64,000 nucleotides of DNA from Eledone cirrhosa (GCA_964016885.1 OZ024740.1:245954001-246018000), one strand, 5' to 3'. Counted from the first letter of the stretch, positions 30,401 to 54,349 are shown. The notes: generated by a model not told the origin, from the sequence alone. Numbers and translations are program-made.

Positions 30401-30772
30401 ATTGATCAGGTGAGTCTAAAGGCCGCTAATCATTCGAAGTTGTGTCACTCGACATTAAATACAATGTGTGTCTCTGATCAAATCATCGGAATACTATTCC
30501 GATGATTTGATCAGGGACACAACTTCGAGTGATTAGCGGCCTTTAGACTCACCTGATCAATGAAACAATTATTAATACTGTAAATAAAACCCTTTTTGTA
30601 CAGCCGACTATGTTATTCTTCACTTTTTCACTACTATTACTCCAAGAATATCCTGCATGGGAATTCTCGCAATCTCGCTACCTAACTAAGGAAACCTCTT
30701 GTTGAGTCAAACAACGCTGTACGTTAAAACTATCCATAGTACAGATTACCTAAAACGATAACTTGTTATCCC
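30401..30772 (+). mobile_element. Non-coding fold-back PLE derivative
   Basis: 30401-30446 and 30468-30493 are inverted copies of parts of 30495-30561. The 3' end abuts (TA)n. Confidence 0.7.
30495..30586 (+). ncRNA. Hammerhead motif with CCGAUGA core
   Basis: TATT, CCGATGA, TTGATCAGG...CCTGATCAA stem II, GAAA (30562), near-palindromic CAATTATTAATACTG, TA, AATA. Confidence 0.6.
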
Positions 30773-30804
30773 ATATATATATATATATAGTTTTAATATA
30801 GATG

Positions 30805-30855
30805 AGATTCTACAGGACTAGAACTGTTTCATTCATTAGAAATCATCAGGAATCT
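30805..30855 (-). ncRNA. Minimal type I hammerhead, canonical core
   Basis: AGATTC-CTGATGA-TTTCTAATGAAT-GAAA-CAGTTCTAGTCCTG-TA-GAATCT: 6-bp stem I, GUA site. Confidence 0.8.
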
Positions 30856-31349
30856 GGGTATCAAAAAATAAATATGGTATTTATAGGTCTCTACAAGTGG
30901 TAGGAGAGGGTGGGGAGTGGGATGGGTGCAGGTCATTGGTTGATAGAAAAGGGAATTCATTAAAAGCTAATTCTACAAAGCTATAGTTTATTTTTATTTT
31001 TATTTATATTTATTTATGTTTTTAGAGTAACAAAGGCAGACAGAATTCTATAAACAGGTTCCGGATGGCATACCATTCCTTGTCAATAAGTTTCTCTTAA
31101 GCCAACAGATGTCTATAAAATCAGTGGGGGGTCAGTCATGGTCGATAGAATTAAAGAAAAGGGAGATTCTTTAAAAGCTAAAGTCATTAAGGTTCTACTA
31201 AGTGACAAAGGTCTAGAGAATTCTGCAGACAGATTCAAAATACTGAGTGCATATCTTACTATTATCTTCGAACTTCTCTTAAACTAATCAACTATATGCC
31301 AAAAATCAACAGACACATTCACAAAAAAAACAAAAAAAACAAAAAAACA

Positions 31350-31529
31350 AAAAAACACACATACTCACTCACACACTTACGCGCAACCATAAACACATAT
31401 ACACTCATAAAAACACACACACATATATAAAAATATATAAATATATATAAATATATATTCATGTACACACACATACACATACACACATACATACATACAT
31501 ACACATATAATACATATACATACATATAT

Positions 31530-31598
<69 letters not shown>

Positions 31599-31603
31599 CA
31601 CAT

Positions 31604-31636
<33 letters not shown>

Positions 31637-31791
31637 CACACAGATACACACACACATACACATACATACACACACACACACACATATATACACAAATAAA
31701 TACACTCACACGCATACATACAAACACGAGTATACATATGTATAAATATCTATACACACACACATATACACACATATATATATATATATAT

Positions 31792-31879
<88 letters not shown>

Positions 31880-31976
31880 CCATACATATACAAACATACA
31901 CATACATACACAGACCTATACATAAATATACACATATATATACAGACATATAACGCATATATACACACATATATAC

Positions 31977-32040
<64 letters not shown>

Positions 32041-32145
32041 ATATATACACACACGCGCATACACACATACACACACCCACACACAAAATATATATACACA
32101 CACTCTCTCTCTCACGCACATATATATATATATACACATATATAT

Positions 32146-32210
<65 letters not shown>

Positions 32211-32329
32211 CACATATATATATATATACACACATACACACACATACACACATATATACATACATACACACATACACATACACAGACACATACATATACA
32301 CATATATATACACACATATATACACACAT

Positions 32330-32400
<71 letters not shown>

Positions 32401-32407
32401 TACACAT

Positions 32408-32450
<43 letters not shown>

Positions 32451-32529
32451 TATATATATATATACACACATACATATACATACATATACACACACACACA
32501 TACACACATAAACATATATACATACAAAT

Positions 32530-32579
<50 letters not shown>

Positions 32580-32599
32580 CTGCCCACACAACCATATAC

Positions 32600-32674
<75 letters not shown>

Positions 32675-32705
32675 CACACACACACACGTACACACATACA
32701 TACAT

Positions 32706-32754
<49 letters not shown>

Positions 32755-32771
32755 TACACACATACATACAT

Positions 32772-32804
<33 letters not shown>

Positions 32805-32813
32805 TATATACAC

Positions 32814-32844
<31 letters not shown>

Positions 32845-33400: not shown

Positions 33401-34570
33401 TTAGCCATCGGGCTTTAACACTGGCTTAAAGTGTTTGAATGTTGCAAAGTTCTTGTGCATGCAGTTCGGGCAGTGTTCAGAGAGTTTGTTCAGTAGCGGG
33501 CCCTTGGCGAATAAAATTTCGTAGCTCTCTGAAATACAAAGGTCGCAGCCCTTGTGTCCGTTGTAAGAGCGCGCTTTCTGGAGTATTTTCCAATTAAGCG
33601 TGAAGGGGGTGGAGTTCCTTTTGAGGTCCCAAACGTAGGAGGCGAGTGTTGTCTGATTTGATTTATCCGGTCTTCTGAAGGAGTGGGTATGGGCATACCA
33701 ACGGGTCTTAAAGTTGTTGGAGGTCATGCCGATGTAAGTTTTTTTGCAATCCTCGGTGCCTGAGATGACATCGCATTTGTATACGATGTCATTTGTGAGG
33801 CATTTGTTTTCTAGTGGGCATGCTTCCTTATTTAGGCAATTACATAGAGCCCCAGTCCGGGGATTGGTTTCGGAGGTGGTTGGCTTATTTAGTTTAGAGT
33901 TGTGGTTGGCTATATTCCTAGCTAGGTTAGGTGTGGTGGAGTAAGATAGTCTTATAGTGTTCTTATTAAAGATGGTGTAGTACCTATGTTGTATGGGGAA
34001 GTGTAATTTCAGTAAAGTGAAGAAAATCCTAGCTATCGGAGTAGATACCTCTCTATTGAAGGGAGGGTTGTACCAGCTAATCTGCCTATGTCTATTCCTC
34101 CTCTGCAATTTTGCGGTGGTTTCTAGGTAAGTTATCTTATCTTTAAATCCGCTACGGGCTAGGGCGTCATTGTAGTAGGAGGCAGATGCATTAAAAATAT
34201 CTTTGTTGGCGGAGAGGCCAGATATTCTAATAGAGACGCTTTTTACTAGGTTATCAGTAATGTTTTGGGGGTGGTTTGAATTAACATTAATATATTTAAG
34301 GGACTCGTTAGGTTTGTGGTACGGGTAATAGAGGGAAGTATCTAGGTCGAGAGTGACATCTAAGAAGTTGGCCCTAGTCAAATTAGAATCTATAGTTATA
34401 CTAAATCCTAGATTAGAGAAGAAAGAGCTTAAGTTTTTCCGAAACCCATCGGTGGTTCTGGGGCTAACCTTATGCAGGGCGAAGAGGCCGTCGTCTCGGT
34501 ATAAACCTCCAGTTAGGCCGGTAAAGAGGTTCTTCAGGTTATGTAGGATGTACAGGCCCACAAGGTCGCT
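33401..34570 (-). CDS. Penelope-like element ORF, 3' part: RT C-terminus plus GIY-YIG endonuclease (5'-truncated)
   Basis: [43 protein letters not shown]-x5-CPL-x3-C, IVY...YIGMT, FKTRW..H, CDLC, LLNKLSE. Confidence 0.93.
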
Positions 34571-34613: not shown

Positions 34614-34682
<69 letters not shown>

Positions 34683-34734
34683 TAATAAAAATAATGAATA
34701 AAAACAAAGTAACAGTTCCTTATATTAAAAAATT

Positions 34735-34870
34735 CATCATTTTACGATCGTTTCTAGGATATATATGCGTGTGTTGGTATGTATATCATATAGATCTATG
34801 TAAAAGTTTTACAAACTATCAAAGGGAATATACATACCTACACATATATATGCTGTCTTCAGAAATAATG
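34735..34870 (-). ncRNA. Type I hammerhead, canonical core, ~100-nt stem II
   Basis: CATTATTT-CTGAAGA-(ATATATATGTGT/GGTATGTATAT helices)-GAAA-CGATCG-TA-AAATGATG: 8-bp stem I, palindromic ACGATCGT stem III, GUA site. Confidence 0.82.
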
Positions 34871-35559
34871 ATATTTGTTTATTGAAAAAAACCAACAAAG
34901 ATTTAATATAATAGGTCTGTTTGGGAACAGGTTTTGAATTGACCAGTAGAAAGGTAGTAAGTGGTCAAGTTGATAGAATAGTAGTAGTAGAAATTTAATT
35001 TAGGGGTAAAAGAATGCAGACTTCAGTTTTGAATGGAAAGAGTATTTTCAATGAAAAGATTACTTTGGGGATGAAAATAGGTCAAGCAGGTGAAAGGTAC
35101 ACGAAAAATTGATGTTATTAAAGAATAATGCTAATGTTAAAATCTAAGGAGAATAAAATTTTACGATAAATGTGTTAGTGAAAAATATCAAACTTATTTA
35201 AAACATAAGGAATTTAGATCTATAAAAGAAATTAAATTAATTTAATTGTTAGGTATATTTATAGGGATAAATTTATATTAATTCATATAGATATGATAAA
35301 TAAGAGTTAGATGTTATTAAAGAATGTTGTTAAAAACGAATAAACATTTTTTTGGGGGGGGGGGGGGGGGTAAATGTATTAGTGAGAAATAACAAACTTA
35401 TATAGATTACAAGGAATATAGATTCATAACAGGAAATTAAAATAGTTTATATGTATACTTATTGGTATACATTTTAGGAAAAGATAGCTGTAAAAGGGAA
35501 ATAAAATTATGCAGTTCTTAGTAGTAGAATATTAATTATAGGTTAACTAATTTTTAAAA

Positions 35560-36375
35560 AATTTAATTATAATAATTTGTAAAATATAAGTGTATATTAA
35601 TTAGGTTTATAATATTTGAAAGTTTTTCTAATTCTATGATTGCATGATATATAATTAATTCTTGTCGCTTATTTAATAGGATATCCTTAGATTTCATTAT
35701 TTCAAAGAGTTCCTGGGAACATAATCTACATTCATATCTATTATTTTGATAAGGGGTGGCCCTTTTGAGCACACTCCAGGTCAGGTTATAATCGATATTC
35801 TTTTTTCTATAATTATTAATTATTTCAGCTAAGGATGTTGTATTAGCTAATGCAGCATTTTTAAAACTGTGTTTGTGGGCATTAAATCTTACTTTAAATT
35901 GGGGAGGATTGAACCACGTTACGTTGCGTTAGCGGCGGTGTCGCCTGCTGGTTCCGCTAATGGAAGCTGGACATTAGGATATTTCCTCCCGGAAGCCACT
36001 CCGCCTGAGGGCCTGGTTGTAATAAGGCGCATGTTCCTCGAATATCTGCTCATTAGCAGACAAACGAGATATGCGGAGGGAGATGTTTTTAACCAGGTTA
36101 TTGGTGATGTTTCTAGGATGGTTTGACTGGCGGTGGATGTAGTGCAGGTTGTCGTTGGGTTTCCTGTATGGGTAGTACAGATCATTATCGAGGTCAAGGG
36201 TAACGTCCAGGAAGTTTACTCGGGTAAGGGACGTTTGTAGGATTATTTAAAATCCCCAGTCGCGGAAGAAGCTGATTAATTGTTTACAGACCCGGTCTGT
36301 ACTACTGGGGTTGTACCCTTTAAGGGTAAGGAGCCCATCATCACGGTACAATCCACTGCCGAATGCAGGAAACAT
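35560..36375 (-). pseudogene. Decayed PLE RT/GIY-YIG fragment
   Basis: [43 protein letters not shown]. Confidence 0.85.
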
Positions 36376-37036
36376 ATCGGTGGAGTTTTTATTGGGGGGG
36401 GGGGGATTCTGAATTAATTTTTCGTATTAATTTTTTCTTATATATCGTACGAGCATTTATGTAGTTTGCATTAGAATTTATGTATTGTAGCGGTACTCTT
36501 ATATATCGTATTAGTATTCATTTTCGGGACTCTGAATTATTATTTCGTATTAGGTTTTTTTTTTAGTATTTTGGCCCCCTACTTGTTGACCTGTCATTGT
36601 AAGATAGATTAGGCCGAGTACTACTAATAAAATTCTTTCACTACAATCTCATATTTAGTATCCCGCCCCACCTATTAAACTTTTTTTTATAGTTTAGCAG
36701 TACCAGTGAGAGATTTGATGATTGTGGTAGGGGAATAGTAACCAGAAATTGTGTTTTTTTATATTTTTCACATTCTTATTTTTCTATATAAATTTACTCC
36801 ATATAGATCTACTTATTGTTTCGACTCCCCCCCCCCTCTTGACCTCTTATCCTTAGGATTCTGCTGCAGTCGTCACTTTCAACGCACGACTGGGTTTCCT
36901 CCACTCTCTCTCCCTCTTCTACTGGCAAGTTCAGCTACCCCTTCCTTCCACAAAATGCAATGATAGAATTATGTGTCTCAACAACAAACTTTTGACCAAT
37001 CCTTGTGACAATCACTTTTACCATATATGGAATATT

Positions 37037-37131
37037 ACCCCTGAGAAGCTCGGCTATTCATTTACCAGGATAAAAATGTTCATTTAGTCCAGAATTAGAC
37101 GTCGAAACGGCTTGAGCTCAGCCGTCGGGGT
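37037..37131 (+). ncRNA. Degenerate hammerhead in a PLE 3' end
   Basis: CCC-CTGAGAA...GTC-GAAA-CGGCTTGAGCTCAGCCG-TC-GGG. The core is degenerate. Same family as 38082-38280. Confidence 0.5.
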
Positions 37132-37287
37132 GCTACTCGTTCCTATTACCCACTCTACTAGCCTAAGTATTGAGTACTTTGGTGCGTTATGGTCCATCTG
37201 GTTCCTTACCATATTTCCTTCGCTATATATATATATATAGTATAAAGCAAACGAAAAATCAGTGATGCATCTGGACTTAATTTATTG

Positions 37288-37378
37288 CGTGTTACAATTT
37301 TTTCGCCGGCAGGTAGCTCGAGACATGGTCCCTGTATGGATCTGGCTGACTCTACAGCTGCAGGTTCTTTCAGACACG
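37288..37378 (-). ncRNA. Hammerhead motif (CUGAAAGA family), inverted-arm copy
   Basis: Reverse complement of 44416-44506 with one stem III change (AAATTG). Confidence 0.65.
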
Positions 37379-37948
37379 GGTATTTCGTTCGGAGAAAATT
37401 TTATCACTGGGGTGTTATCATAAAAAAACACCCTAAAAAAACCCTCTTCCACTCTTGTCATGGCATTGGCTGTTTTTACTCCACGTCATCACAAGTTCTG
37501 GTCAGTATTTACTGCCACACGGGTCATCAGCCATTTTCCGTCCGACACACTTCAAAGGAGTCATGCTGGGTTCAGCATCTCACACGTCTGTTCACACTCC
37601 AGAGTAAGCACCCACACACACGAATATACACACACATGCAGACACAGACACATTCATGCATACACACACGTACGCCTACATGCGTAGACACACACACACC
37701 CACATACATATATGTATATATACACACACACGCTCTCCCTCACTTCCACGGACACAGTCGCACCCACTTGTAGATACATATCGCCACAAGCCTTATAACA
37801 GCTGCTTAATTCGCGCCATATATCCGGTCGGTCAAGCATGGCCTACGCAAACATACACATATATACACACATACGCGCGCACACATACATACGCACAACC
37901 TTATATACATTTATATATATATATATACACACACATATATACATACAC

Positions 37949-38007
<59 letters not shown>

Positions 38008-38016
38008 CACACACAG

Positions 38017-38081
<65 letters not shown>

Positions 38082-38087
<6 letters not shown>

Positions 38088-38280
38088 AACGAGTAGGACC
38101 CCGACGGCTGAGCTCAAGCCGTTTCGACGGCTAATTCTGGACTCCAGAATTAGCCGTCGAAACGGCTTGAGCTCAGCCCTCGGGGTCCTACTCGTTCCTA
38201 TTACCCACTCTACTATCCTAAGTATTGAGTACTTTGGTGCGTTATGGTCCATCGGGTTCCTTACCACATTTCCTTCGTTA
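38082..38280 (+). mobile_element. Palindromic PLE pLTR fragment inserted in (TA)n
   Basis: ~60-bp arms (38082-38141 and 38143-38201), 1-nt centre, one mismatch, then a tail homologous to 37147-37225. Confidence 0.8.
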
Positions 38281-38382
38281 TATATATATATAGAGAGAGA
38301 GAGAGAGATAGATACACACACATATATATACTCACACATCCCCACACATACATGCAAAATACACATACGTACACACATACAT

Positions 38383-38433
<51 letters not shown>

Positions 38434-38753
38434 AAAAAAAAACCTAACATGCATACGCACACCCACACATATACATACATATACATACACACATGCAGAC
38501 ATATATACATCTACATATGCATACGCACACGTGCTGCTACATGCAGACACCTGCACATATGCATATTGGTTTACACACACATGTGCTTCCACATATATAA
38601 ACAAAACCGTAAATTAAAAATACATTATAAAATAAAAAACATTATATAATAAAAAAAAAAACACAATATACCATAAAATAACGGTAAAATACCATAACAT
38701 AAGATATAAAATATATAATATAAAGTATAAAATATCAATATATTATACAATAT

Positions 38754-38844
<91 letters not shown>

Positions 38845-39409
38845 TCATACATACACACACTTGTACACACATTCATACATACATATACGGATATATACAA
38901 AGGATGTATGATAAAGTAATACAAAAAGAATAATATTAATAAAATGCATATATACTCCATATATAATCATCCGTACACATTCCTGTGAGATGCACATAAA
39001 CACATACATGTATGCACAGATACACATACACACATATAGATGCCCCAATATGCATACACCCGCACCCACACACATATATATATATATACATATACATATA
39101 TATACACACTTACGCATCCACGCACACACACCTACTCATACTTAGCTATACGTACATACGCACACATATATAGATATACATATATATATATTCATATATA
39201 CATACATATATATATATATATATACATACACACACTCTGCCACATATTTACATACATGCACCTGTCCGCACATACATGCGCTCATAAGCTCAAGCAAACA
39301 CGCACCCATGCCCATATGCACACCCACGTATATATATATATCTACACACACACACACACATACATATACCTACGCACAGGTCCACACATAAAAAAACATT
39401 CTAAAACTA

Positions 39410-40242
39410 ACGCGGTGGAGATGGCGCACACTGGCCGTCAACCGCGGCGACAGAGTGACCGTATTTCGGAGCGCGGAGAACCACCCAGGGACCTGCCCTC
39501 AAATGACAACCCGGCCCCCGAGGCGACCAGAGCGCCCGTGGAGGGCGATATGGTCCAGCACCGAGAGGGAAACAGTAGAATGGGGGAGACAATAGTGTCG
39601 GCAATACAACACCCTGAGAACCTTGAGAGGGCCATAACAGATCGAGGCCCGGACATTGGATGCACAAGAACTGAGAACAGAACTTGTAACTGTAGAGCGG
39701 GCACCCGGTGCCCCTTACAGGAAAAATGCTTGATGAAGGACTTAATATACAAGTGTGTGGTTACAACTGAAAACGCGCATCGCACCTACATCGGCGCAAC
39801 ATCCACGACCTTTAAATCACGGATGTATAATCACACGAATTCCTTCAGAGATCGTAGCAAAAGGCACTCCACTATGTTAGAAGACCTGGTGTGGAACCTG
39901 AAAGACCAAGCCACTCCGTACGCCCTGGAATGGAGGATCGTTCGCCACGCGAGGGCATATTCGGCCGGAAGTAGAAAGTGTCGATTGTGCTTACACGAGG
40001 CCATGGAGATAGTCAGACTGAAAGATGACGCCGTCAACCTGAAGTCTGAAATTATCATGCCTGCAGGCACCAGAGAAGATGCACTTTTGCCGCATGGAAT
40101 CCTCCGGTGGCGCAGGCCGGGGGCATGGGAACGGATACCCATAGACCCGATTGGCCCAACGGGATTAGGGGACCTGACGCCATGCCATGATGACGGTGTG
40201 CGACCCGTGATGCAAACATATGTAAACCAGGGGCACGCCTGA
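39410..40242 (+). CDS. PLE GIY-YIG endonuclease fragment (frameshifted near the end)
   Basis: CNCRAGTRCPLQEKC, LIYKC, TYIGATSTTFKSRMYNH, CRLCLHE, VNLKSE. Confidence 0.85.
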
Positions 40243-40796
40243 CCGAGCACACAACATTGGAAGATACATCGCATGGGCCGGGACCGACTAACACGGGGTC
40301 CACTGCCGCCCGGTCCTGTGCCCTAAACATATAGAACAGCACACCCCAGCCACGGTGCTATGACCCATGGCGACCGGGCCGGGCGTCCCCTTGAATGTGT
40401 ACCCCCCGTCAATCGTGACTATATACTATCCACCTGTTCCACTTTGGAACAATGATTATTACTGTCATTATTGTTCTATTATTGTTCTGTTACTGTTACT
40501 TGTTCTATATACAGACCCAAGTTTGCACCTCATACTACCTGTGTGTAGTATATCACATGGATACACGCACCTTCTCCTGTACCCCCCGCCCCCCGTTTTT
40601 TTATTTTACCCCTTTTTTCATGTACCTATTTATGAAGTTACATACAGATTTTAGTGTATCCTAAAATATTGTAAATTTATTTATTTATTTTATTTTATTT
40701 TATTTTATTTTATTTTATTTTATTTTATTTTATTTTATTATACTATTGTGTTTATATTCACGTGTTTTTTTATGTGTGGACCTGTACGTAGGTATA

Positions 40797-40850
<54 letters not shown>

Positions 40851-41080
40851 CGTGGGTGTGGATGGGGGTGTGTATATGGGCATGGGTGCGTGAATGCATG
40901 AGCTTATGAGCGCGTGATTGTGCAGACAGGTGCATGTATGTAAATATGTGGCAGAGTGTGGTGTATGTATATATATATATGCGTTTATATATGAATATAT
41001 ATATATATATGGATGTATATCTATATATGTGTGCGTATGTACGTATAGCTAAGTATGAGTATGTGTGTGTGGGTGCGTAA

Positions 41081-41146
<66 letters not shown>

Positions 41147-41356
41147 TATGTGTGTGGGGGGGGGGTATGCATATGTGGGCATCTATATGTGTGTATGTGT
41201 TTATGTGCATCTCACAGGAATGTGTACGGATGATTATATATGGAGTATATATGCATTTTATTACTATTATTCTTTTTGTATTACTTTATCATACATCCTT
41301 CCTTTGTATATATCCGTATATGTATGTATGAATGTGTGTACAAGTGTGTGTATGTA

Positions 41357-41416
<60 letters not shown>

Positions 41417-41544
41417 AAGTTATATTTAAAATTGTTGGGTTACAACTAGTAAATATTTATAACTGATATAAAAGCACTCGACAAATATTTGGAGTATATT
41501 TACAATATTAAATAAATGGAAAACTATATTTATAAAACCATATC

Positions 41545-41610
41545 TATTTCATTATATATATTTCGGGGATATCGTATTAACAATATGCTATGCCTTCATC
41601 AGACAGAATA
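41545..41610 (-). ncRNA. Type I hammerhead, canonical core
   Basis: Antisense-arm copy of 41753-41818. Confidence 0.72.
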
Positions 41611-41752
41611 CAATATAAACAGTTTTATAGATAAATATATTCGACATACCGTAATAAACATCAACTTCATCTGCTAGCGTAAACCTCTTCAAATGAAGTT
41701 GATGTTTATTACGGTATGTCGAATATATTTATCTATAAAACTGTTTATATTG

Positions 41753-41818
41753 TATTTTGTCTGATGAAGGCATAGCATATTGTTAATATGATATCCCCGA
41801 AATATATATAATGAAATA
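41753..41818 (+). ncRNA. Type I hammerhead, canonical core
   Basis: TATTTTGT-CTGATGA-AGGCATAGCATATTGTTAATATGATATCCCC-GAAA-TATATA-TA-ATGAAATA. Confidence 0.75.
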
Positions 41819-41937
41819 GATATGGTTTTATAAATATAGTTTTCCATTTATTTAATATTGTATATATATATATATATATATTTCGTTTCTGAATTTTTTA
41901 AGCAAGATTCTTTATCTGAAAATGAGTGTTGAAACCG

Positions 41938-42389
41938 ATATTGTTATACTTTGGGAGGGTCATGTTGCCAATAAGAAACACACGCACCAGTTGCTTCACT
42001 TCAATTTATTATAATAAATTTATAAATTTAGGAATTTATAAATTTCCGGTTGGTTGGTTGGTTCCACAACCAGATGGTTGTTTATATATTGTCAAAGTTC
42101 TTTCGTCACACATTCTGTGTACACACACACAGAAACAAGATGGCGTAGGACAAAACAAAGGAGAGGTACAAAAACAAAGAAAAGAATCCCCAGTCACTGA
42201 AAAGGTCACAGAATGTGTGACGAAAGAACTTTGACAATATATAAACAACCATCTGGTTGTGGAACCAACCAACCAACCGGAAATTTATAAATTCCTAAAT
42301 TTATAAATTTGTTATAATAAATTGAAGTGAAGCAACTGGTGCGTGTGTTTCTTATTGGCAACATGACCCTCCCAAAGTATAACAATATA
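41938..42389. repeat. Fold-back element, ~180-bp near-perfect arms, ~87-nt spacer
   Basis: 41938-42119 versus 42207-42389; the right end abuts (TA)n. Confidence 0.9.
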
Positions 42390-42391
42390 TA

Positions 42392-42487
<96 letters not shown>

Positions 42488-42828
42488 TCATATTGTATAA
42501 TATATTGATATTTTATACTTTATATTTTATATTTTATATCTTATGTTATGGTATTTTACCGTTATTTTATGGTATATTGTGTTTTTTTTATTATATAATG
42601 TTTTTTATTATATAATGTATTGTTAATTTACGGTTTTGTTTATATATGTATATGTGGAAGCACATGTGTGTGTAAGCCAATATGCATATGTGCAGGTGTC
42701 TGCATGTGGCAGCACGTGTGCGTATGCATATTTAGATGTATATATGTCTGCATGTGTGTATGTATATGTATGTATATGTGTGGGTGTGCGTATGCATGTT
42801 AGGTTTTTTTTTTGTATATATACACATA

Positions 42829-43607
42829 CTAGCAGCTGAGCCCGGTTGCACCCGTTAATAATTTGAAAAATATTATTGAAAGTTTATTATAAAGAGGCAG
42901 TTTCAGGAAAAAAAATAGAAATATGTAATTGGGGCTGGACGGCGTACAATGAGAAGTGGAGCGATGTGAAAAGCGTTGTTTATTAACAGCGAAATAGCAA
43001 TGTCGATGATATGCAAGTTTGAAAATTCAGATTATGAAGGTTTGTATGATAGTTTACACTTTGATTGCCCTGTTCAGCAAGAGGGGCCTCTATATATTAG
43101 ACGTTTATTAGAAGAGGTGGAAATAACTAACCCCAGTATTAGAACAGGGGGTTCGCAATGTAAGGGTTTTATTACTTTTGTTAGAAAACAGTGACCTTTT
43201 TCGGTTTGGCATTTCGTAAAATTCTACTGCAGAATCGATTTCATAAAACGGTACTGTATGATCGTTATAGAAGTATTTAAATTTAATATAGAGCAATTGT
43301 AATTGAAAAATGAAAATAAAACGTACTGTAGAAGGCAACAGTTTATTAACAGCGAAATAACGTTGTCTTTGATATGTTATTTTAAATAAGACAATGAATA
43401 TTAAAGGGAACTGTTTAGTAAATAGACCGTTTGGGGGCCCTAGGGACCACATTTTTCAAGTTAGAGATTTGAAACATCGTCTATTTGCTTCCTTGGCACT
43501 TTTTGCATAGGTGTGTAAATTTTCATGTCCAGCCGACCACGTCTACTACCATTTAACCGTGCACAACTGAATTTCAACCACCACCCATTTCACAAATATA
43601 TATTAGA
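42829..43607 (-). mobile_element. Non-autonomous Helitron-like element
   Basis: Minus strand A|TC...hairpin (CGGGTGCAACCGGG)-CTAG|T. It is absent from the matching left arm near 38420. Confidence 0.72.
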
Positions 43608-43726
43608 TATATATATATATGTGTGTGTGTGTGTATGTAATTTTGTGTACGTATGTGTATTTTGTATGTATGTGTGGGCATGTGTGATTATATATATGTC
43701 TGTGTATCTATCTATCTATCTATATA

Positions 43727-43789
<63 letters not shown>

Positions 43790-44415
43790 ATGTGTGTGTG
43801 TATATGTATGTGTATGTATGTGTGTATGTATATATGTGTGTGTATGAGTGTGTATATATATATATAAATGTATATAAGGTTGTGCGTATGTATGTGTGCG
43901 CGCGTATGTGTGTATATATGTGTATGTTTGCGTAGGCCATGCTTGACCGACCGGAGATATGGCGCGAATTAAGCAGCTGTTATAAGGCTTGTGGCGATAT
44001 GTATCTACAAGTGGGTGTGACTGTGACCGTGGAAGTGAGGGAGAGCGCATGTGTGTATATATACATATATGTATGTATGTGGGGGTGTGTGTGTTTACGC
44101 ATGTAGGCGTACGTGTGTGTATTCATGAATGTGTCTGTGTCTGCATGTGTGTGTATATGTGTGTGTATATTAGTGTGTGTGGGTGCTTACTCTGGAATGT
44201 GAACAGACGTGTGAGATGCTGAACCCAGCATGGCTCCTTTGAAGTGTGTCGGACGGAAAATGGCTGATGACCCGTGTGGCAGTAAATATTGACCAGAACT
44301 TGTGATGACGTGGAGTAAAAACAGCCAATGGCATGACAAGAGTGGAAGAGGGTTATTTGAGGGTGTTTTTTTATGATAACACCCCAGTGATAAAATTTGC
44401 TCCGAACGAAATACC

Positions 44416-44506
44416 CGTGTCTGAAAGAACCTGCAGCTGTAGAGTCAGCCAGATCCATACAACGATCATGTCTCGAGCTACCTGCCGGCGAAACAATTGT
44501 AACACG
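44416..44506 (+). ncRNA. Hammerhead motif with 8-nt CUGAAAGA core
   Basis: CGTGT-CTGAAAGA-ACCTGCAGCTGTAG...CTACCTGCCGGC-GAAA-CAATTG-TA-ACACG. Confidence 0.72.
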
Positions 44507-44789
44507 CAATAAATTAAGTCCAGATGCATCACTGATTTTTCGTTTTCTTTATACTATCTACACTCTACTCTGTTGAATAGTGGTGAATCTTTATATAGCT
44601 TGTTCTGTAGTGGGGTGCTCCGATGTATCTCCTTGAGTGGGATGATAGCACCGGCTTTATATAACTATCGCTTCCTGTCCCCCACCTTGAGGGGAGAGTC
44701 AAAACATCAACCTGTTCACACTAAAAATGTTTTGACCTAGAATTTGATCTTTAGGTATCACCAAAGTTCAAGGCGCGGACAGATTTCGC

Positions 44790-44880
<91 letters not shown>

Positions 44881-45098
44881 GGGTTATAGTATCGTAAGAG
44901 AGGATAGAGTGGAGAGATAACGAGGTGCGACACAGAATACTACATGCCAAAAGCAGATGCATTGTGTGCTCAATGCTTGGGTTATCAGGGTTAAATATTA
45001 GAGAAAGTTAATATTTAGTGTAAGGATTAAGCACAGTTGGAATAAGCAAAAGAATGAGTGAATGAAAGTTACAAGCCGTTAAAACATATCTTTATATA

Positions 45099-45152
45099 GC
45101 TCTTACACGTGCTTCGCCCATGGGGGGGGGGGGGGGGGGGCTCGTTGGAGGC
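45099..45152 (-). ncRNA. Decayed hammerhead motif
   Basis: CCAACGA-GCCC...GGGC-GAAG-CACGTG-TA. Three core changes. The element's 3' end abuts (TA)n at about 44878. Confidence 0.4.
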
Positions 45153-45201
45153 AGATATTCAGATAGCAAAGTCCTTAATTACAAAGCCCTGAGAGGGTAT
45201 G

Positions 45202-45393: not shown

Positions 45394-45635
45394 GGTATAA
45401 TAATATCACATCGCTATGCATTGCGATCTTAGATGTTATGGGTATAAATACCGGTGAAAGGGCTATAATTCGCTAAGGGAGATAATTACCGGTTCCCGTT
45501 GAAAGTTACTGCAATACTTATGACCAATACCAACTATGGGAAAAACATTTTTTTATTTAAAAGGAATTAACATAATGTTAACATTATGTTAATTCCTTTT
45601 AAATAAAAAAAATGTAACATTATGTTAACATTATT

Positions 45636-45823
45636 AAAGGGCGGTGAATTGGCAGTATCGGTAGAGTGTTGGACGCCATGCTTTCTAGCATAGTTACGTC
45701 CCTTTACAGTCTGAGTTCAAATCCCGCCGAGGTTAACTTTGCCTTTCATCCTTACGGGGTCGATAAAATAAAGTACCAGTAATGTACTGGGTAGTTGCTG
45801 GCCTTGTGCCTAAAGTAGAAACA
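45636..45823 (+). mobile_element. SINE A with 17-bp TSD
   Basis: ATTATGTTAACATTATT at 45619-45635 and 45824-45840. Confidence 0.9.
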
Positions 45824-46357
45824 ATTATGTTAACATTATTTTAAAGGAATTTTAACATTATGTTAACATTATTTAAAAGAAACGTGTTGGCAGTTGTCTC
45901 CCGCTACTTCTGTTGGAATCCGCTCGACGGCGCAAGCCATCAGCTTATCAATATTCATAGCTAGAAGACTTTCCAAATGTTTATTTGTAAACATACCGTA
46001 TATCATTAGATATATGAAATTCACATACTTACAAGTTAAAATATTCAACCACGTGATAGGAGAACACCAACACATTTTTTTTAACGGAACAAGACTTATT
46101 CGTCCATTTTGTTTGGTTGGTGTTGACAAAGAGACCAGCACTTTGGCCCCAGTTCTCCGATGACTTCGGTGAAGCAGCGGTCAATCGAATACCAACAAAG
46201 GTTTATAAAATTTTGTTATCCCTAAACAAAGCTAAATTCTAAGTAGGTCATCATAGCATATAGCCCAAGGTTATACAGTTTCAATGTACTACCTCACGTC
46301 AAATATACCAAAATGTACTTAGATCACAAGTAAATAAATAAAATTAAACCAAAATTA

Positions 46358-46674
46358 AACCAAAGCTGTTAATTGTATATTTAATTGATCAACATGTTTC
46401 GTCATGCTAAATAAGAACATTCTCATTAAACCCAACTCATGGGGATCTATAATAATTTAAATTAACATTAAGGAAACGTTACCTTCAATTGTACATCATG
46501 TACAGAAAGGTGTAGAGCATCTCGACTATCACGATATGCAATCGAAGGTAAGGTTTCTTTAATGTTAAGTTAAATGATTATAGATCCCGATGAGCTGGGT
46601 TTAATAAGAATGTTCTTATTTAGCATGGCGAAACATATGTTGATCTATTAAATATACAATTAACAGCTTTGGTT
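46358..46674. mobile_element. Older fold-back HHR element, ~143-bp diverged arms
   Basis: 46358-46500 versus 46530-46674, next to (TA)n. Confidence 0.82.
46580..46648 (+). ncRNA. Hammerhead motif with CCGAUGA core
   Basis: ATAGATC-CCGATGA-GC..AATAAGAATGTTCTTATT..GC-GAAA-CATATG-TT-GATCTAT. Confidence 0.68.
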
Positions 46675-46717
<43 letters not shown>

Positions 46718-47175
46718 TTCAAATATCTACACTTCCGGTATAACGTCGCCACCACCACCACTTCAACAACCATATATATAGAAAGAGGGAGTGTGTGATG
46801 AGAGAGATAGAGAGATTATGATTTTCTACACGCTGACGCGTATGAGTGTGCACATACATACATCTATATACAGTATATAACTATAATCGCGCAAACACAA
46901 ACTTATAAAAATACACGCTCACGGACATACATTTACACAAATACACATATATTCACACATACTTTCACACAAACATACATTCATTCACACATACATTTAC
47001 ACAAACACACACACACAGTCATGATAGCAGCGTTCGGTGAATTGGAAATGGGAGGGTAAAACAAGTATAACGTTTTATTTATTCATTAAGTCTTTATTTA
47101 TTTATTTATTTATTAACTCTTTTTTTTTAAAACTCATTTAATATAATGGTTACAGAACGAAAACACTAACAAATA

Positions 47176-47556
47176 TAATTGTTTCTATTTTTGGCACAAG
47201 GCCAGCAATTATCCCAGTGTATTACTGGTACTTTATTTTATTGACCCCGTAAGGATGAAAGGCAAAGTTAACCTCGACGGGATTTGAACTCAGACCGTAA
47301 AGGGACGTAACTCTATGCTGCAAAGCATGGCATCCGACTCTCTACCGATACTGCCAATCCACCACCCTTTTAATAATTGTTTCTACTTTTGGGACAAGGC
47401 CAGCAATTATCCCAGTGCATTACTGGTACTTTATTTCATCGACCCCGTAAGGATGAAAGGCAAAGTTAACCTCGACGGGATTTGAACTCAGACCGTAAAG
47501 GGACGTAACTATGCTGGAAAGCATAGCGTCCGACCCTCTACCGATACTGCCAATTC
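47176..47556 (-). mobile_element. Two tandem full-length SINE A copies
   Basis: Starts at about 47176 and 47372. Confidence 0.9.
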
Positions 47557-48175
47557 AATATAATATATACAAAGGAAAGGGAAAGGAAAAAAAAGAAAAA
47601 GAAAAAATACACAAGCACGTAATACAGACATCTTAGACCACATAGAACAAAATGCAGGCGAAAGAGTGGAAACGAGCCGCTACCAGAGCAAAAGATAGCA
47701 AAATAGCGAGGAGCACTGGGAAACCTCTCTAATAATTTTAGGCAGGCCAGCATGCTCGCAGCGTTACCTGGGGTGATGGCGACGCTGAGGTGCTGGAACA
47801 ACCAAGTGCCCTCACGAGCATCACCAGTTACCTCTGTTTGGCGAGCCGCCAGTGAAGATAAGAACCTCGCTGTCAGTAGCCCGACTCCCGCAAACGTCTC
47901 GAACGCCACAGGCTGGATAATGTCGTTAGCTGACAGAACACGGTATTTTAGGATTTTGTTCCGTTCAGCTGCGGTTGCTGTAGCTCTCGCCCTTACCGCT
48001 GCATCCAGAATGTGGGAAGAAGCAAAAGAGTCACTAACTGTGACATCCCAGTTAAGGCACCTGCCTCTTGACCAGGAGCACAGAGTAAGGCCGTCAAGTC
48101 TTTTCCCATCAATTCTGGACAACCCAGACGGTTCCAAAATTGAGGGGATGTTTTCCCGGCCCAAAGCTCTTAAGT
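47557..48175 (-). mobile_element. 3' fragment of an RLE-type (CRE-like) non-LTR retrotransposon
   Basis: PSILEP..DGKR(L)DGLT..W..GR.L.WDVTV, AERNKILKY, PVAFETF, WLFQHLSVAI..GNA. Confidence 0.8.
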
Positions 48176-48379
48176 GGTAATGGGACAGTGTGTGTATGTG
48201 CGCGCGTGTGAGTTTGTCGGCGTTCTTAAATTAGAGACATGTGTGTGTGTGTCACTGTTTTTAAGTTAGACATATATATGTTTGTATCCCTTTTCATTTT
48301 ACACACACATACATTCACACAAACACACATACACATTGTGTGATGGACGGGTGGACAGAAGTCCCTCAAATTTATATTC

Positions 48380-49035: not shown

Positions 49036-49388
49036 ATTGTCAATTTACTTTTCAATTTACATATATCTATATGCATATATATTTGCGTATAATACCAATA
49101 TGCACACTACATATTCTAGCAGAAAACCGCTCCTAGGGCAGTTTTTCTGCTAGTATATGTTAAAGATTAAACACTCAATAAATTTCTTCTTGCCTAGTTT
49201 TTATACTATGTATGCTAGGTAGACGCACTCAAGCATCCACTTTTCTAAAAAAAAATATATCACACACAAAACGCCAACAGTGTTCCAAGAGATGGCAACA
49301 TGAATGGACCTCTTTATTTTTATCTAAAAACATTTTTTCCAATCCATCCCACCCATCCTTTCAATTTATCTAATTTCTCATTCTTTCT

Positions 49389-49416
49389 GCTGATGAAGGA
49401 CTTAGCTTCCGAAACA
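49389..49416 (+). ncRNA. Hammerhead core (stem I and III partners not resolved)
   Basis: CTGATGA-AGGACTTAGCTTCC-GAAA-C, in an element ending at (TA)n near 49510. Confidence 0.45.
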
Positions 49417-49512
49417 TTAAGACCCTCTTCCTGCTATTTCAAGCATTAACCTAATATATTCCGTCTATATACTGTACCGATTGTGTTGTTATTTCTGTTT
49501 ACCTTTTACATA

Positions 49513-49985: not shown

Positions 49986-50016
<31 letters not shown>

Positions 50017-50392
50017 GACACTTTCTTGTTCACAAGTGTTTTTAGGCCTCTTTTTATATGTATATATATATATATAGAAATAGAAATAATAATAAATTTG
50101 AAGACTAAAATCCAAAGAGGGCTCGATAAGATACATATATATCAAATATATAAGAACCGTAGAGCAAATATTTATTAAAATAACAGATTAAAGTTTAAGC
50201 GAAGAATCGCTGCTTTCACCCTTAACAGGATCTTCTGAAACTAAAAAAGTCAATCTGTGACGCAGAAGTAAATATTTCAAAAAACGTTGCAACCGAGGAA
50301 GACACGAAGACGATACTTTGGTTCGTGGAAACGTTCCCTGGCAAAGAATGGAAAAAAACGAAGATAATAAATATATATATAAAAAAACGAAG

Positions 50393-50554: not shown

Positions 50555-50594
50555 GATATTAAACAAATGGAAACTATATTTATAAAACCATATT

Positions 50595-50660
50595 TATTTC
50601 ATTATACATATTTCAGGGATACCATATTAAAAATATGGCATGCCTTCTTCAGATAAAATA
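50595..50660 (-). ncRNA. Type I hammerhead (antisense-arm copy)
   Basis: Reverse complement of 52411-52476. Confidence 0.75.
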
Positions 50661-52410
50661 CAATATATAAGCAGTTTTATAAATAAATTTGACGTACCAT
50701 AAATATTGATCAACTTTTATGCAAGAAGTTGGTTTGGTAGTGAGATGTTTATAAATATTTAGTGTTAAGCACAGTTAGAAAGAAAGACGGAGAAAAGGAA
50801 GAAATGTATGTAAAGAAAAACAGAGAGATAGAGAGAGATAGGGGAGAGAGAAATAGTGAGGAGGTGAAAATGAGAGGCAGCTGAGGCAACAGATGAATAA
50901 TAATAATTCATCATACAAATTGAGAGATTTAGGAGGGAGGGGGTACTGTAATTATTTATTTATTTATTTATCTGGGTCTCCTAAATTTTTTAAATGATTT
51001 CTGCTAAATAAGTTTTGTTGAATAATTTTTGGTTTTTTGTTTGCTTTTTGATTCTGATTGCTTCTAATGAACTTGGCAATATATTGTCAGATAAATTGGA
51101 AGGGTAGATTTCTGTGGTTGATATGGGGGGCATACTGTGTTTTTTACGGCCCTAGATACTCTAGGGAGTGATGAAAATATTCTTAACGTTTTGATATCTC
51201 TGTGCCGATATATTAATATCTGTTGTCTCTGTGCAAAGGCCATATGTATTAATATTAATATGGAATGATTACAGAGTATATTCTATTTTATCTGTTTATT
51301 TTATCTGTCCATGTACATATTATGTGCGCACGCATATATATATATATATGTATGTGTGGCTATGGTTCTGGATATGTTACAGATATGCATAATATTCTAT
51401 ACATGAACGATAATCATATATGTGAGAGCAGGAATATTAATATTAATATATATTTTTATGTATATGTATGTATGTATATATATATAGTAAAATCTTTTAT
51501 AGCACAAGGGATAATTTTTTCCTGTGAAATAAGAAATTACAGAGTTGATCACGTAAGATCACGGGTATGTCTATAGTGTCAACTAGAACTTGAGATGACC
51601 TTCTCTTTTTCTCTTTCTTTCCTTTTCCGGAAAGTACATATATACTTATGTATTTCCGTATTTTTTGAAGTTTTATATCAGTTTTTGGTACATCGACCTA
51701 AGAATTTTTAAACTAAGCATATGGTCATTATTTTTCACACATTATATATCTATGTCTCATTCATGAATATTGATATTTACATTATAATACCCATATAATA
51801 TGAATTGATAATTCAAATTGATAGGACATAACGTAAAGTTGTAAATCTATCATCCTTCTCTCTAGATATAGCTCTTTCTTCTCCTCCCTCTATACATGAT
51901 GAAATTTAAGTATCGGTTATTTTAACTTTGCCTCTCGAGCTTCTCTATTGTTTTCTCTCTTACTTCTCTCCTATTTCTCTCACCTCCCCATATATAATTA
52001 TTATTATTTGGTCTACCTTTTTTTCCCCCCACCTCTATCTTTCTCTACCTCTCTGTTTTCTCTTTATTTATTTTTATTTCTCTTCGTCTCCTTAACACTA
52101 TAACTAAATAAATAAATAAATAAATAATTACAGTACCCCCTCCCTCCTAAATCTCTCAATTTGTATGATGAATTATTATTATTCATCTGTTGCCTCAGCT
52201 GCCTCTCATTTTCACCTCCTCACTATTTCTCTCTCCCCAATCTCTCTCTGTTTTTCTTTACATACATTTCTTCCTTTTCTCCGTCTTTCTTTCTAACTGT
52301 GCTTAACACTAAATATTTATAAACATCTCACTACCAAACCAACTTCTTGCATAAAAGTTGATCAATATTTATGGTACGTCAAATTTATTTATAAAACTGC
52401 TTATATATTG

Positions 52411-52476
52411 TATTTTATCTGAAGAAGGCATGCCATATTTTTAATATGGTATCCCTGAAATATGTATAATGAAATA
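52411..52476 (+). ncRNA. Type I hammerhead, canonical core
   Basis: TATTTTAT-CTGAAGA-AGGCATGCCATATTTTTAATATGGTATCCCT-GAAA-TATGTA-TA-ATGAAATA. Confidence 0.8.
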
Positions 52477-52603
52477 AATATGGTTTTATAAATATAGTTT
52501 CCATTTGTTTAATATCGTATATCTACTCCAAAACTTGTTGAGTGCTTTATATCAGTTATATAATATTTACTTGTTGTAACCCAACAATTTTAAATAAAAC
52601 TTT

Positions 52604-52674
<71 letters not shown>

Positions 52675-52680
<6 letters not shown>

Positions 52681-52987
52681 ACAGGGAGAAAGAGACGATT
52701 ATTAGGAAGAAAAATGTTTTTCCTTTTTTGTTTCTCTCTTTTTTCTGGGTTAGAAAATGATTAAAACCTAATGTTTTACTTTGGGTGTTTTATTTGTTAT
52801 TAAATATATAAATAGATAAATAAATGCCATTGTTAAATAAATAAATCAACTAATACCTTAACACTTCGCACAAAGTAAAACATTTCGTTTTAATCATTTT
52901 CTAACCCAGAAAAAAGAGAGAGAGATACAAAAAAGGAAAAAAAATATTTTTCTTCCTAAAAATCGTCTCTTTCTCCCTGTTTTCATA
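52675..52987. repeat. Fold-back/MITE-like element in (TA)n, ~110-bp arms
   Basis: 52675-52782 versus 52871-52987; no HHR core seen. Confidence 0.85.
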
Positions 52988-52997
52988 TATATATATA

Positions 52998-53370
52998 TTA
53001 GTGTATAGCGGTAGCTATGTTACTTCCGTAGGCGGTATGCCAAAATTAGCACTCGATATTCATCAGAGTAGAGTGTAGATATTATCAAGAAAAAGAAAAA
53101 TCAGTGATGCATCTGGATTAGTTTATTTCGTGTTACAAATGTTTCGCCGGCATGTAGCTCGAGTCATGGTCCTTGTATGGATCTGGCTGATTCTATCCAG
53201 TGATAAAATTTGCTCCGGACATAACAGCCGTGTCTGAAAGAACCCGCAGAAGTAGAATCAGCCAGATCCATACAAGGACCATGACTCGAGCTACATGCCG
53301 GCGAAACATTTGTAACACGAAATAAACTAAGTCCAGATGCATCACTGATTTTTCTTTTTCTTGATAATAT
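52998..53370. mobile_element. Mini fold-back of the 37-44 kb PLE family
   Basis: Arms 53079-53195 and 53253-53370, homologous to 44383-44577. Confidence 0.85.
53229..53319 (+). ncRNA. Hammerhead motif (CUGAAAGA family), independent diverged copy
   Basis: CGTGT-CTGAAAGA-ACCCGCAG...TGCCGGC-GAAA-CATTTG-TA-ACACG. Confidence 0.68.
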
Positions 53371-54065
53371 ATATATATATATATATATATGTTGACTGGA
53401 CACTTTCTTGTTCACAAGTGTTTTTAGGCCTCATATTATGTTACCATTATTTTTATATATATTTTTATGTGTATTTGGTGTATACGTTCGTATGTGTGCG
53501 GGTACAGGCGTTGCGTGGGTTTTGTATGTGTGTGCGGGTTTTTTTTAGTGTACGTGCTTGTATTTGTATACCTATGGCGTGTGTTTTTGCGTATGCTTGT
53601 GTATGTACGTATATGGATGCGTGTATGTATTTATTTAATTTCAATTACCTCTGTATTTTATTTACTTTATTCTTAATTCTGAAGCCAAGAATCATTCGGT
53701 TTCCTAGTTAGAATTTTAGTCTACGACTTCAGTTATACCATTTACGTGGTTTTGTCTTTGCGTGCAATTGTTCTCACACATTCACATAATGACGTATTAT
53801 CTTCGTTTTTTTCGTTCATTGCCAGAGAACGTCTCTATGAACCACCTAATAGAATATTAGTCTACGACTTCATTGATACCATAAACGTGGTTTTGTCTTT
53901 GCGTGTAATTGTTTTCACCGCTCCAAATAATTACGTATTATCTTCGTTTTTTCCCGTTCTTTGCCAGGGAACGTTTCCACGAACCAAAGTAACGTCTTCC
54001 TGTCTTCCTCCGGTTGCAACGTTTTTTTGAAATATTTACTTCTGCGTTCACAGATTGACTTTTTT

Positions 54066-54116
54066 AGTTTCAGAAGATCCCGTTAAGGGTGAAAGCAGCG
54101 ATTCTTTGCTTAAACT
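54066..54116 (+). ncRNA. Hammerhead motif with CAGAAGA core (antisense copy at 50192-50242)
   Basis: AGTTT-CAGAAGA-TCCCGTTAAGGGT-GAAA-GCAGCGATTCTTTGC-TT-AAACT. Confidence 0.6.
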
Positions 54117-54202
54117 TTAATCTGTTATTTTAATATATATATATATGTTGACTGGACACTTTCTTGTTCACAAGGGTTTTTAGGCCTCATATCATGTTAC
54201 CT

Positions 54203-54272
54203 TATTTTATCTGATGAGAACACAATTTTTGTCCCAGGATGATGTTGTTTTCGAAATGCGCATAATAAAATA
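54203..54272 (+). ncRNA. Type I hammerhead, canonical core
   Basis: TATTTTAT-CTGATGA-GAACACAA...TTGTTTTC-GAAA-TGCGCA-TA-ATAAAATA: perfect 8-bp stem I, palindromic ATGCGCAT. Confidence 0.85.
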
Positions 54273-54349
54273 TATGGAACTTTTTTAACCACCTTTTAAT
54301 TTCTTCTTTATATATATATATACGTACATACACATACACACACACACAT

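Follow-up and report, generated by a model that had tools for sequence, protein, structure and literature searches.

The genome of Eledone cirrhosa (GCA_964016885.1, 3.0 Gb) contains short hairpins that carry hammerhead ribozyme motifs, and one stretch of it raises the question of what these hairpins are and how they are made. The window analysed here is that whole stretch of 64,000 nucleotides (nt), OZ024740.1:245954001-246018000; within it, the region under study (30401-54310) is a pile-up of hammerhead-bearing ends from about ten families of Penelope-like elements (PLEs), labelled F1 to F11 below, together with F4b, which is related to F4 at 83-87%. A sequence-only reading of the window had suggested that the hairpins are a non-autonomous, self-propagating class of fold-back elements. 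We conclude with moderate confidence that they are instead head-to-head pairs of the pseudo long terminal repeats (pLTRs) of autonomous, mostly Hydra-clade PLEs, each with a junction of its own, and likely the product of two reverse transcriptions that were primed in the leader and ended at the 5' end of the mRNA. This is mostly known biology, namely new Hydra-clade PLE families with the usual inverted stubs; what is new is that fold points cluster at predicted promoters and that the arm carrying the tail has been counted, two results that make the PLE insertion mechanism testable. The inverted ends of PLEs and the role of their hammerheads are presented as open questions in two accounts of these elements (PMC8557442, PMC11167929), and this genome supplies young families, intact open reading frames (ORFs) and insertions by the thousand with ends that can be tallied.

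Coding partners and junctions of the hairpins

Long head-to-head pairs were hand-picked from match lists and inspected upstream of the hammerhead on the same strand. PLE coding sequence is found there in other copies of eight families: F1 (L182 and L195, endonuclease end only), F2 (L160, L177, L178), F3 (L170), F4, F7 (L259-L261, L263, L272, L273), F8 (L247, L257, L269), F9 (L265, L266) and F10 (L274; L199 is also F10). No coding partner was shown in another copy for F4b (hammerheads at 50595/52411), F5 (30805), F6 (46580) or F11. F4 has ORF pieces in 13 of 20 loci and, at L061, an intact ORF of 737 codons; the 3' end of the element with this ORF is matched by short F4 copies at 98-100% identity. 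The order at L061 is pLTR, hammerhead, tail, an ATG about 45 nt later, ORF, a 1.6-kb untranslated region (UTR), pLTR, tail and (TA)n. Intact tandem units (pLTR, tail, ATG, ORF, UTR, pLTR) are present at L061 and L272, and the intact ORFs of these two families encode a single reverse transcriptase (RT) with a C-terminal GIY-YIG domain.

Judged by their motifs, the coding families appear to be mostly Hydra-clade PLEs. An RWK-type motif (RW plus R) and DKT for DKG occur in all four N-terminally complete proteins in alignment A1, and a CxCX5C linker, a CxxC before the conserved E and a CxH after N are all found in L061, L272, L177 and ORF A of the window; the linker or C-terminal motif is degraded or cut off in L274, L269 and ORF B, also of the window. 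Pfam GIY-YIG matches in the ORF remnants of the window are weak and fall under the curated cut-off. Among the best 120 of 136 matches to the L061 protein, most of them unnamed, the nearest homologs with a name come from Argonauta hians (39% identity), which makes an octopod host likely. F9 (L265, L266, L172) has a PLE RT of another type, with a YVDD motif and without the Hydra-clade motifs, so that the (TA)n niche and the habit of folding back are common to no fewer than two PLE clades.

The inner junctions of the hairpins are mostly unique. A similarity search with the F4 fold-back favours junctions like that of the query; counts use positional samples, taken as the first hits along C1, except where a similarity-selected sample is named. 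The 354-nt F4 fold-back is full-length at 40 scored loci (94-100% identity), and the centres of these copies differ between loci. The 25 F4 junctions of the positional sample include 19 distinct ones, and the 27 of a similarity-selected sample include 23; the three repeated types are at microhomologies and on different single-nucleotide polymorphism (SNP) backgrounds, two of them in both spacer orientations. Both F4 SNP subfamilies contain long and short copies, and a hand count of the first 100 F4 hits gave 37 head-to-head pairs, with 24 short, and 15 short with gaps of 151-164 nt. Junctions of the other families were inspected by eye. With junctions that are mostly distinct, and repeats that stand on different SNP backgrounds, the fold-backs therefore appear to be pLTR stubs of autonomous elements and not a self-propagating class, a proposal against which the coding partners of eight families also speak; identity of inner junctions by descent, which the sequence-only reading had named as the mark of such a class, was not seen in F4. 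The alternative that it offered, one-off random truncation, fares no better, as 5' ends cluster at one site per family. Its general picture of PLEs with pLTR hammerheads, inverted insertions, (TA)n targets and very numerous copies is borne out by the copies and counts.

Truncated arms (n=211, with two F2 sets partly overlapping) abut an inverted copy of their own family in 111 cases, and inverted joins across families number two, one of them weak. Twin priming across families is ruled out as a common route by this count. The clear case is L118, where an F3 arm is joined to an inverted F4b-like arm; by eye, L212 is F7 running into the F2 start, and L186 is F1 beside an inverted F7 arm. Copies in the window are head-to-head or single, and no tandem arrays of a short unit were found in it. 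At L164 (1063-1501), three head-to-tail F2 units about 210-230 nt apart resemble a retrozyme array. Contigs of three sequencing runs of unknown kind, compared with 41420-41858 of the window, contain the F4 family and several arm-to-arm joints, and are uninformative on starts or expression.

Solo pLTRs or earlier stubs might instead be transcribed from an internal promoter and mobilised in trans, in the manner of short interspersed nuclear elements (SINEs), folding anew at each insertion. Short copies exist in very large numbers, internal promoters are possible in PLEs (PMC2377424), pLTRs alone are described as enough for such mobilisation in rotifers (PMC3846280), non-autonomous Chlamys elements and retrozymes are traced to PLE ends (bioRxiv 10.64898/2026.07.22.740005, PMC8557442), and the join at L118 would fit as well. 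We nevertheless consider this route unlikely: both F4 subfamilies have long as well as short members, inverted joins across families are rare, the window lacks short-unit tandem arrays, and F1 and F5 stubs lose the upstream TATA box that lies ahead of their predicted start.

Clustered 5' ends and the proposed insertion mechanism

The 5' ends of arms were tallied relative to one candidate transcription start per family, in an interval from -3 to +4. This interval holds 22 of 85 F4 ends, with six more at -5 (the F4 set includes 20 loci picked as long or unpaired), and 9 of 30 F3 ends, with none between -33 and -1. The corresponding counts are 5 of 20 for F7 (9 within +15), 4 of 30 for F2 (11 within +15), 3 of 20 for F9, and 2 of 20 each for F1 and F8; by eye, about 11 of 14 short F5 arms begin within about 9 nt of the site positioned by the TATA box. 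In six of seven families the candidate start is an A after two pyrimidines with a T at +3, a pattern like that of the animal initiator; what we take to be a YY1-like motif follows it in F9. A TATA box is located at -31 in F1 and, by eye, at -30 in F5. An initiator-like motif has also been described in a pLTR (PMC3846280). In F1, F5 and F7 stem I opens with the candidate start; in F3 this start lies about 30 nt upstream of the hammerhead, in F4 about 80 nt upstream, and in F2 inside stem II. Because the F2 ribozyme (37036-37131) contains its candidate start, folding would be possible in the 3' copy alone. Long arms are rarest in F2 (4 of 30), a family with a stable stem III, although the anchors are not the same for every family. 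Ends at most 3 nt from the ribozyme cut number 1 of 85 in F4 and 3 of 30 in F2, where the anchors are downstream of the cut; these counts do not exceed what the spread of ends would give, and they speak against ribozyme cleavage as the source of 5' ends in the two families.

We hypothesize that the site of clustering is the RNA polymerase II (Pol II) start of a pLTR promoter. The mRNA would begin in the upstream pLTR, with a pLTR and tail at both ends; the PLE protein would nick both (TA)n strands and prime at two start sites bounding the tail. Leader-primed complementary DNA (cDNA) would halt at the start site after roughly 60-300 nt, and two such cDNAs on opposite target strands, one with the tail and one without, would give a short fold-back once 0-6 nt of microhomology had joined their ends. 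Long arms would come from priming at the 3' copy, and ribozyme cleavage would not fix the ends. We infer the start site, the double priming and the template from the products, which are themselves observed: the insertions point to leader priming and double priming, and they predict exact transcription starts. The Penelope promoter is reported to lie in the pLTR (PMC2377424). The Poseidon PLE protein, according to Frangieh et al. (PMC11167929), is a predicted dimer that in vitro nicks and extends both target strands and starts at two RNA sites bounding the tail near the pLTR-ORF junction, with ribozyme activity not needed. None of the open-access papers listed in literature searches, judged by title and opening of the abstract, ties the PLE inversion point to a transcription start. 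Clusters of stubs likely grow because each insertion leaves (TA)n flanks as targets for the next.

A further and rather speculative proposal, to which we give little weight, is that the pLTR is an analogue of retroviral U3-R-U5: reverse transcription would begin in the 5' leader, and the strong-stop cDNA would jump to the 3' end created by the ribozyme and from there copy the ORF. All families examined have the predicted start first, then the ribozyme cut and then two RT start sites, with 41-141 nt from start to cut; if the 3' hammerhead removes the 3' tail, this start-to-cut stretch would be repeated at both RNA ends. If such strand transfer takes place, the hundreds of thousands of stubs would be failed transfers, and PLE hammerheads would gain a role.

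Several points weigh against the origin of the stubs in leader-primed pairs ending at a transcription start. The start sites are predictions from sequence, and the anchors of F3, F7, F1, F8 and F9 lie upstream of the cut, so that these five samples cannot show ends there. Candidate starts were chosen after the ends had been seen and the clustering is therefore partly post hoc, leaving the motifs alone as independent. The clustering is sharp in F4 and F3 and weak in F1, F8 and F9, while F2 ends are diffuse, most of them downstream of the candidate site. A full mRNA leader and a short solo-pLTR transcript are indistinguishable by sequence; the tail-side count could be obscured by later spacer inversion, and the likeness of arms could be a result of gene conversion. 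Finally, RT might stall at the long pyrimidine tract just upstream of the site in F4 and F8 even if there were no start.

This last point leads to a rival reading, plain 5' truncation of cDNA begun at the mRNA 3' end, in which the clustered site is a pause where RT stalls at structure or at a pyrimidine tract. The scatter of F2 ends and the coincidence of the site with hammerhead stem I in F1, F5 and F7 are in keeping with it, but F3 has no pyrimidine tract, the position of the site relative to the ribozyme varies in F2, F3 and F4, and the TATA boxes at -30 and -31 in two families and the common initiator-like motif also speak against it; we judge it improbable.

The head-to-head pairs can also be examined through their arms and tails. 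F4 arms are identical within an insertion in 22 of 37 cases, compared with 685 of 2,664 cross pairs, and F3 arms differ by 4.75 mismatches within an insertion and 11.1 between (12 insertions). The tail is on one arm only, the shorter in 22 insertions and the fuller in 10, with 7 ties or unclear cases (n=39, 26 of them from the similarity-selected set). Self-priming, in which the second arm is a copy made from the folded-back first cDNA or, as suggested by Arkhipova et al. 2013, from a folded-back antisense template, is proposed in PMC3846280 and would account for subfamily variants common to both arms and for perfect palindromic junctions near the start site (3 of 25 short F4 junctions), but it is the least probable route, since a copied arm cannot exceed its template at the outer end unless later trimmed or flipped, and pure snap-back poorly fits a tail that the shorter arm carries in 22 of the 32 decided cases.

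Hammerheads and features of the region

A strict descriptor of type I hammerheads, with a canonical core and a long stem II permitted, identifies seven in the region (30805-, 34734-, 41545-, 41751+, 50593-, 52409+ and 54203+, with the strand as suffix), of which 34734- has a stem II of about 100 nt. The same descriptor gives no canonical match in 40 block-wise dinucleotide shuffles of 30401-54310, and none in the 40 kb of the window outside it. It also accepts 46578+ with U4 changed to C; together with seven motifs that have all three stems and were compared with other genomic copies, this makes eight variant-core hammerheads. The earlier count of about 15 hammerheads at 16 coordinates thus stands for 15 of them; the remaining one, 45099, is doubtful, since its core is changed at two positions, its stem I is weak and none of the fetched loci contains a relative. 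Two motifs absent from that count are at about 42193+ (F9), canonical in 24 of 30 parsed copies and mutated here, and at 49390+ (F11), a near-minimal hammerhead.

Among the variant cores, U4 is C or U among family copies of F1 (30495), and F2 (37037) has C3 opposite A8 here and a compensatory U3-A8 pair in 12 of 18 parsed copies. F3 (37288, 44416, 53229) has a single extra core base in 26 of 27 parsed copies, and F7 (50192, 54066) has A for U4 in 41 of 41. Since the F3 and F7 cores deviate family-wide, some of the predicted ribozymes may be inactive. Unrelated stem sequences pair in every family, 45099 excepted, stem I of F5 has a double compensatory change between two subfamilies, and where families were anchored on another part, the core half turned up in its expected position. 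With three stems, a conserved core and covariation, the motifs other than 45099 are predicted type I hammerheads, and the covariation by which the sequence-only reading had asked to be judged agrees with it, as does the reading of copies with its placement of element ends at or near (TA)n. Its description of the hammerheads as minimal does not hold, as most have stem II regions of 12 to about 115 nt. Minimum free energy (MFE) folding of single motifs often did not return the hammerhead fold, which is expected because stem III is palindromic, and it gives no support for activity. An Rfam scan of the window found no hammerhead at E up to 10, and only microsatellite-driven microRNA (miRNA) matches; Rfam thus detects none of the window's hammerheads. 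In annotation, the stubs resemble miniature inverted-repeat transposable elements (MITEs) or unknown repeats. The features of the region are as follows.

30401-30772: F1 fold-back centred on 30494-30495, where hammerhead stem I begins; hammerhead at about 30496-30578 (+) and tail on the right arm; left arm truncated by a SINE-like repeat at 30401
30790-31420 (-): F5 3' end with canonical hammerhead 30805-30855, arm ending in (TA)n; TATA box 30878-30885, exactly 30 nt upstream of stem I; predicted start 30855
33401-34570 (-): ORF A, 5'-truncated Hydra-type RT C-terminus and GIY-YIG
34680-35901 (-): F10 endonuclease end, 3' UTR, hammerhead 34734-34871 (long stem II), end in (TA)n
35900-37223: F2 head-to-head insertion; RT piece 35900-36388 (-) and 3' UTR; right part (+) with hammerhead 37036-37131 and tail, candidate start 37086 within stem II
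37240-44793: large F3 inverted insertion of 7.5 kb, containing nested insertions
37240-39398 (-): F3 left arm, hammerhead near 37288
to 44793 (+): F3 right arm, with 3' UTR, candidate start 44386, hammerhead 44416-44506 and tail
39400-40242 (+): ORF B within the F3 right arm, GIY-YIG end
38085-38278: short F2 fold-back nested in (TA)n, without the first half of the ribozyme core
41414-41860: short fold-back of F4, joined at 41671/41672, a single base inside the leader; hammerheads 41545-41610 (-) and 41753-41818 (+), tail 41414-41504
41882-42388: F9 fold-back, mutated hammerhead about 42193-42236 (+)
45095-45175 (-): degenerate hammerhead-like motif, unconfirmed, including the 45099 site
46358-46677: old F6 fold-back, arms 85% alike, hammerhead 46580-46648 (+)
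49217-49509 (+): F11 3' end, near-minimal hammerhead at 49390
50077-50369 (-): F7 arm and its tail; A replaces U4 in the hammerhead, near 50192
50555-52606: F4b head-to-head insertion, 400-nt arms, 1.2-kb UTR-like centre, tail on the right; hammerheads 50595-50660 (-) and 52411-52476 (+)
52999-53366: short F3 fold-back, tail on the left, hammerhead 53226-53318 (+); right arm begins at 53197, two bases before candidate start 53199
53454-54132 (+): F7 3' UTR and pLTR, candidate start 54066 as first base of stem I
54147-54308 (+): F8 pLTR stub, canonical hammerhead 54203-54272
50014-50050 and 53391-53453: two F8 5' pieces, beginning at about the same site as the F8 stub

At 35900-35901 the F2 RT piece, which is 93% identical to the coding region of L177, is fused directly to the F10 endonuclease end, forming a chimeric ORF remnant (35563-36388) by deletion or template jump. 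Each ORF remnant had been thought to have a hammerhead downstream on its own strand; this applies to the F10 half of the remnant but not to the F2 half, because in a chimera the downstream hammerhead belongs only to the endonuclease half. For ORF A the link to the hammerhead at 30805 is one of order and strand, by which ORF A is the probable partner of F5 across a 1.8-kb (TA/CA) run; no other copy showed the two as one continuous element. The F10 copy of the window is 89% identical over 1229 nt to that of L274, which runs on into PLE coding sequence. Self-comparison places F2, F4 and F9 stubs inside the 7.5-kb F3 insertion, whose 3' UTR also holds a 775-nt repeat (42826-43600); short pieces of this repeat match L368, and its start looks Helitron-like. 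Between (TA)n tracts at 52678-52983 there is a fold-back in which no hammerhead was found; its one relative, 83% alike, is also folded (L378 1834-2014), and the fold-back may represent a MITE or the remains of a stub from a PLE without a ribozyme.

Abundance and comparison with known systems

Copy numbers were obtained as exact whole-genome pattern matches, which count arms and not insertions; reversed-pattern controls all gave 0. F7 (25,192) and F2 (23,521 and 24,251 with two patterns) are followed by F9 (7,731), F4 (3,045 and 3,535 with two patterns), F3 (1,455), F8 (610) and F1 (502, with a 26-mer), and the two matches of F6 are its own two arms. As a density control, forty hand-spaced 10-kb windows on 16 large contigs (400 kb) were searched with 12 probe families. 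The control contains 108 pLTR arms, with pLTR and tail segments making up 3.3% of bases, and the 25 arms in the 23.9 kb of the region correspond to 3.9x the control rate. The region is thus ribozyme-dense, as had been noticed, but not exceptional: 4 of the 40 control windows held 9 or 10 arms, which places the cluster at the high end of a distribution found across the genome. Arm counts are overdispersed across control windows, with a Spearman correlation of 0.63 with (TA)n tracts. The strict descriptor finds 29 canonical hammerheads in the control, compared with 0-3 in ten shuffles, and 28 of the 29 have a (TA)n tract at most 300 nt downstream; rough extrapolation from 29 per 400 kb gives about 200,000 canonical hammerheads per genome. 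A cephalopod genome paper lists 235 hammerheads from an Rfam-type search (PMC6962438), and a repeat paper on O. vulgaris describes 31 recently active Penelope-like families in a main text that is silent on hammerheads (PMC13282606). Loci L341-L380 contain many further unrelated hammerhead families with a palindromic stem III of 6-8 nt, near (TA)n.

Hydra-1_Obim from Octopus bimaculoides belongs to the Hydra clade of C-terminal EN+ (endonuclease-bearing) PLEs as described by Craig et al. 2021 (PMC8557442). The elements found here share with that description the single RT and GIY-YIG ORF, the clade motifs, the (TA)n targets, the hammerhead near the 3' end, a U-U at the base of stem II in several families, and the inverted 5'-truncated copy with a tail. 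They differ in having at least eight coding families, compared with one listed there for Octopus, units of about 3.3-4.1 kb and not under 3 kb, tails of about 80-140 nt and not 30-40, a stem II of up to about 115 nt, family-fixed core variants, and the different RT of F9. Inverted insertions of canonical PLEs, in the accounts of PMC3846280 and PMC11167929, likewise have head-to-head pLTRs, palindromic or microhomologous junctions and a tail at one end, as well as an initiator-like pLTR motif and solo pLTRs; by contrast, pLTR-only pairs are the commonest form here, the junction is at the predicted start, and the tail-side count favours double priming over self-priming.

In Schistosoma, opposite-strand hammerhead pairs 100-700 bp apart were read as truncated PLEs by Cervera and de la Pena 2014 (PMC4209133), and these have the same U3-A8 core covariation and palindromic helix III; stems are longer in E. 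cirrhosa, and the junction and promoter analysis is added here. The stubs also resemble the non-LTR (long terminal repeat) retrozymes reported in bioRxiv 10.64898/2026.07.22.740005 in being non-coding, pLTR-derived and equipped with a type I hammerhead, whereas those are head-to-tail tandem units forming families of their own, and the stubs are head-to-head and identical to coding elements.

Outside the region, the window contains a decayed Hydra-type RT remnant at 6181-7053 (-). Other repeats of the window include a 637-aa RT ORF of long interspersed nuclear element (LINE) type with a Pfam RVT_1 match, RTE-like LINE fragments and an LTR-type RT fragment (733-2646; 13725-17904; 60521-60928). 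Within the region, a 230-aa open frame at 47538-48230 (-) is transposon-like and has no Pfam match. A SINE-like repeat of about 190 nt is present in more than 10 copies (2801, 9259, 25338-25793, 27772-28106, 45202, 45630-45828, 47175-47557).

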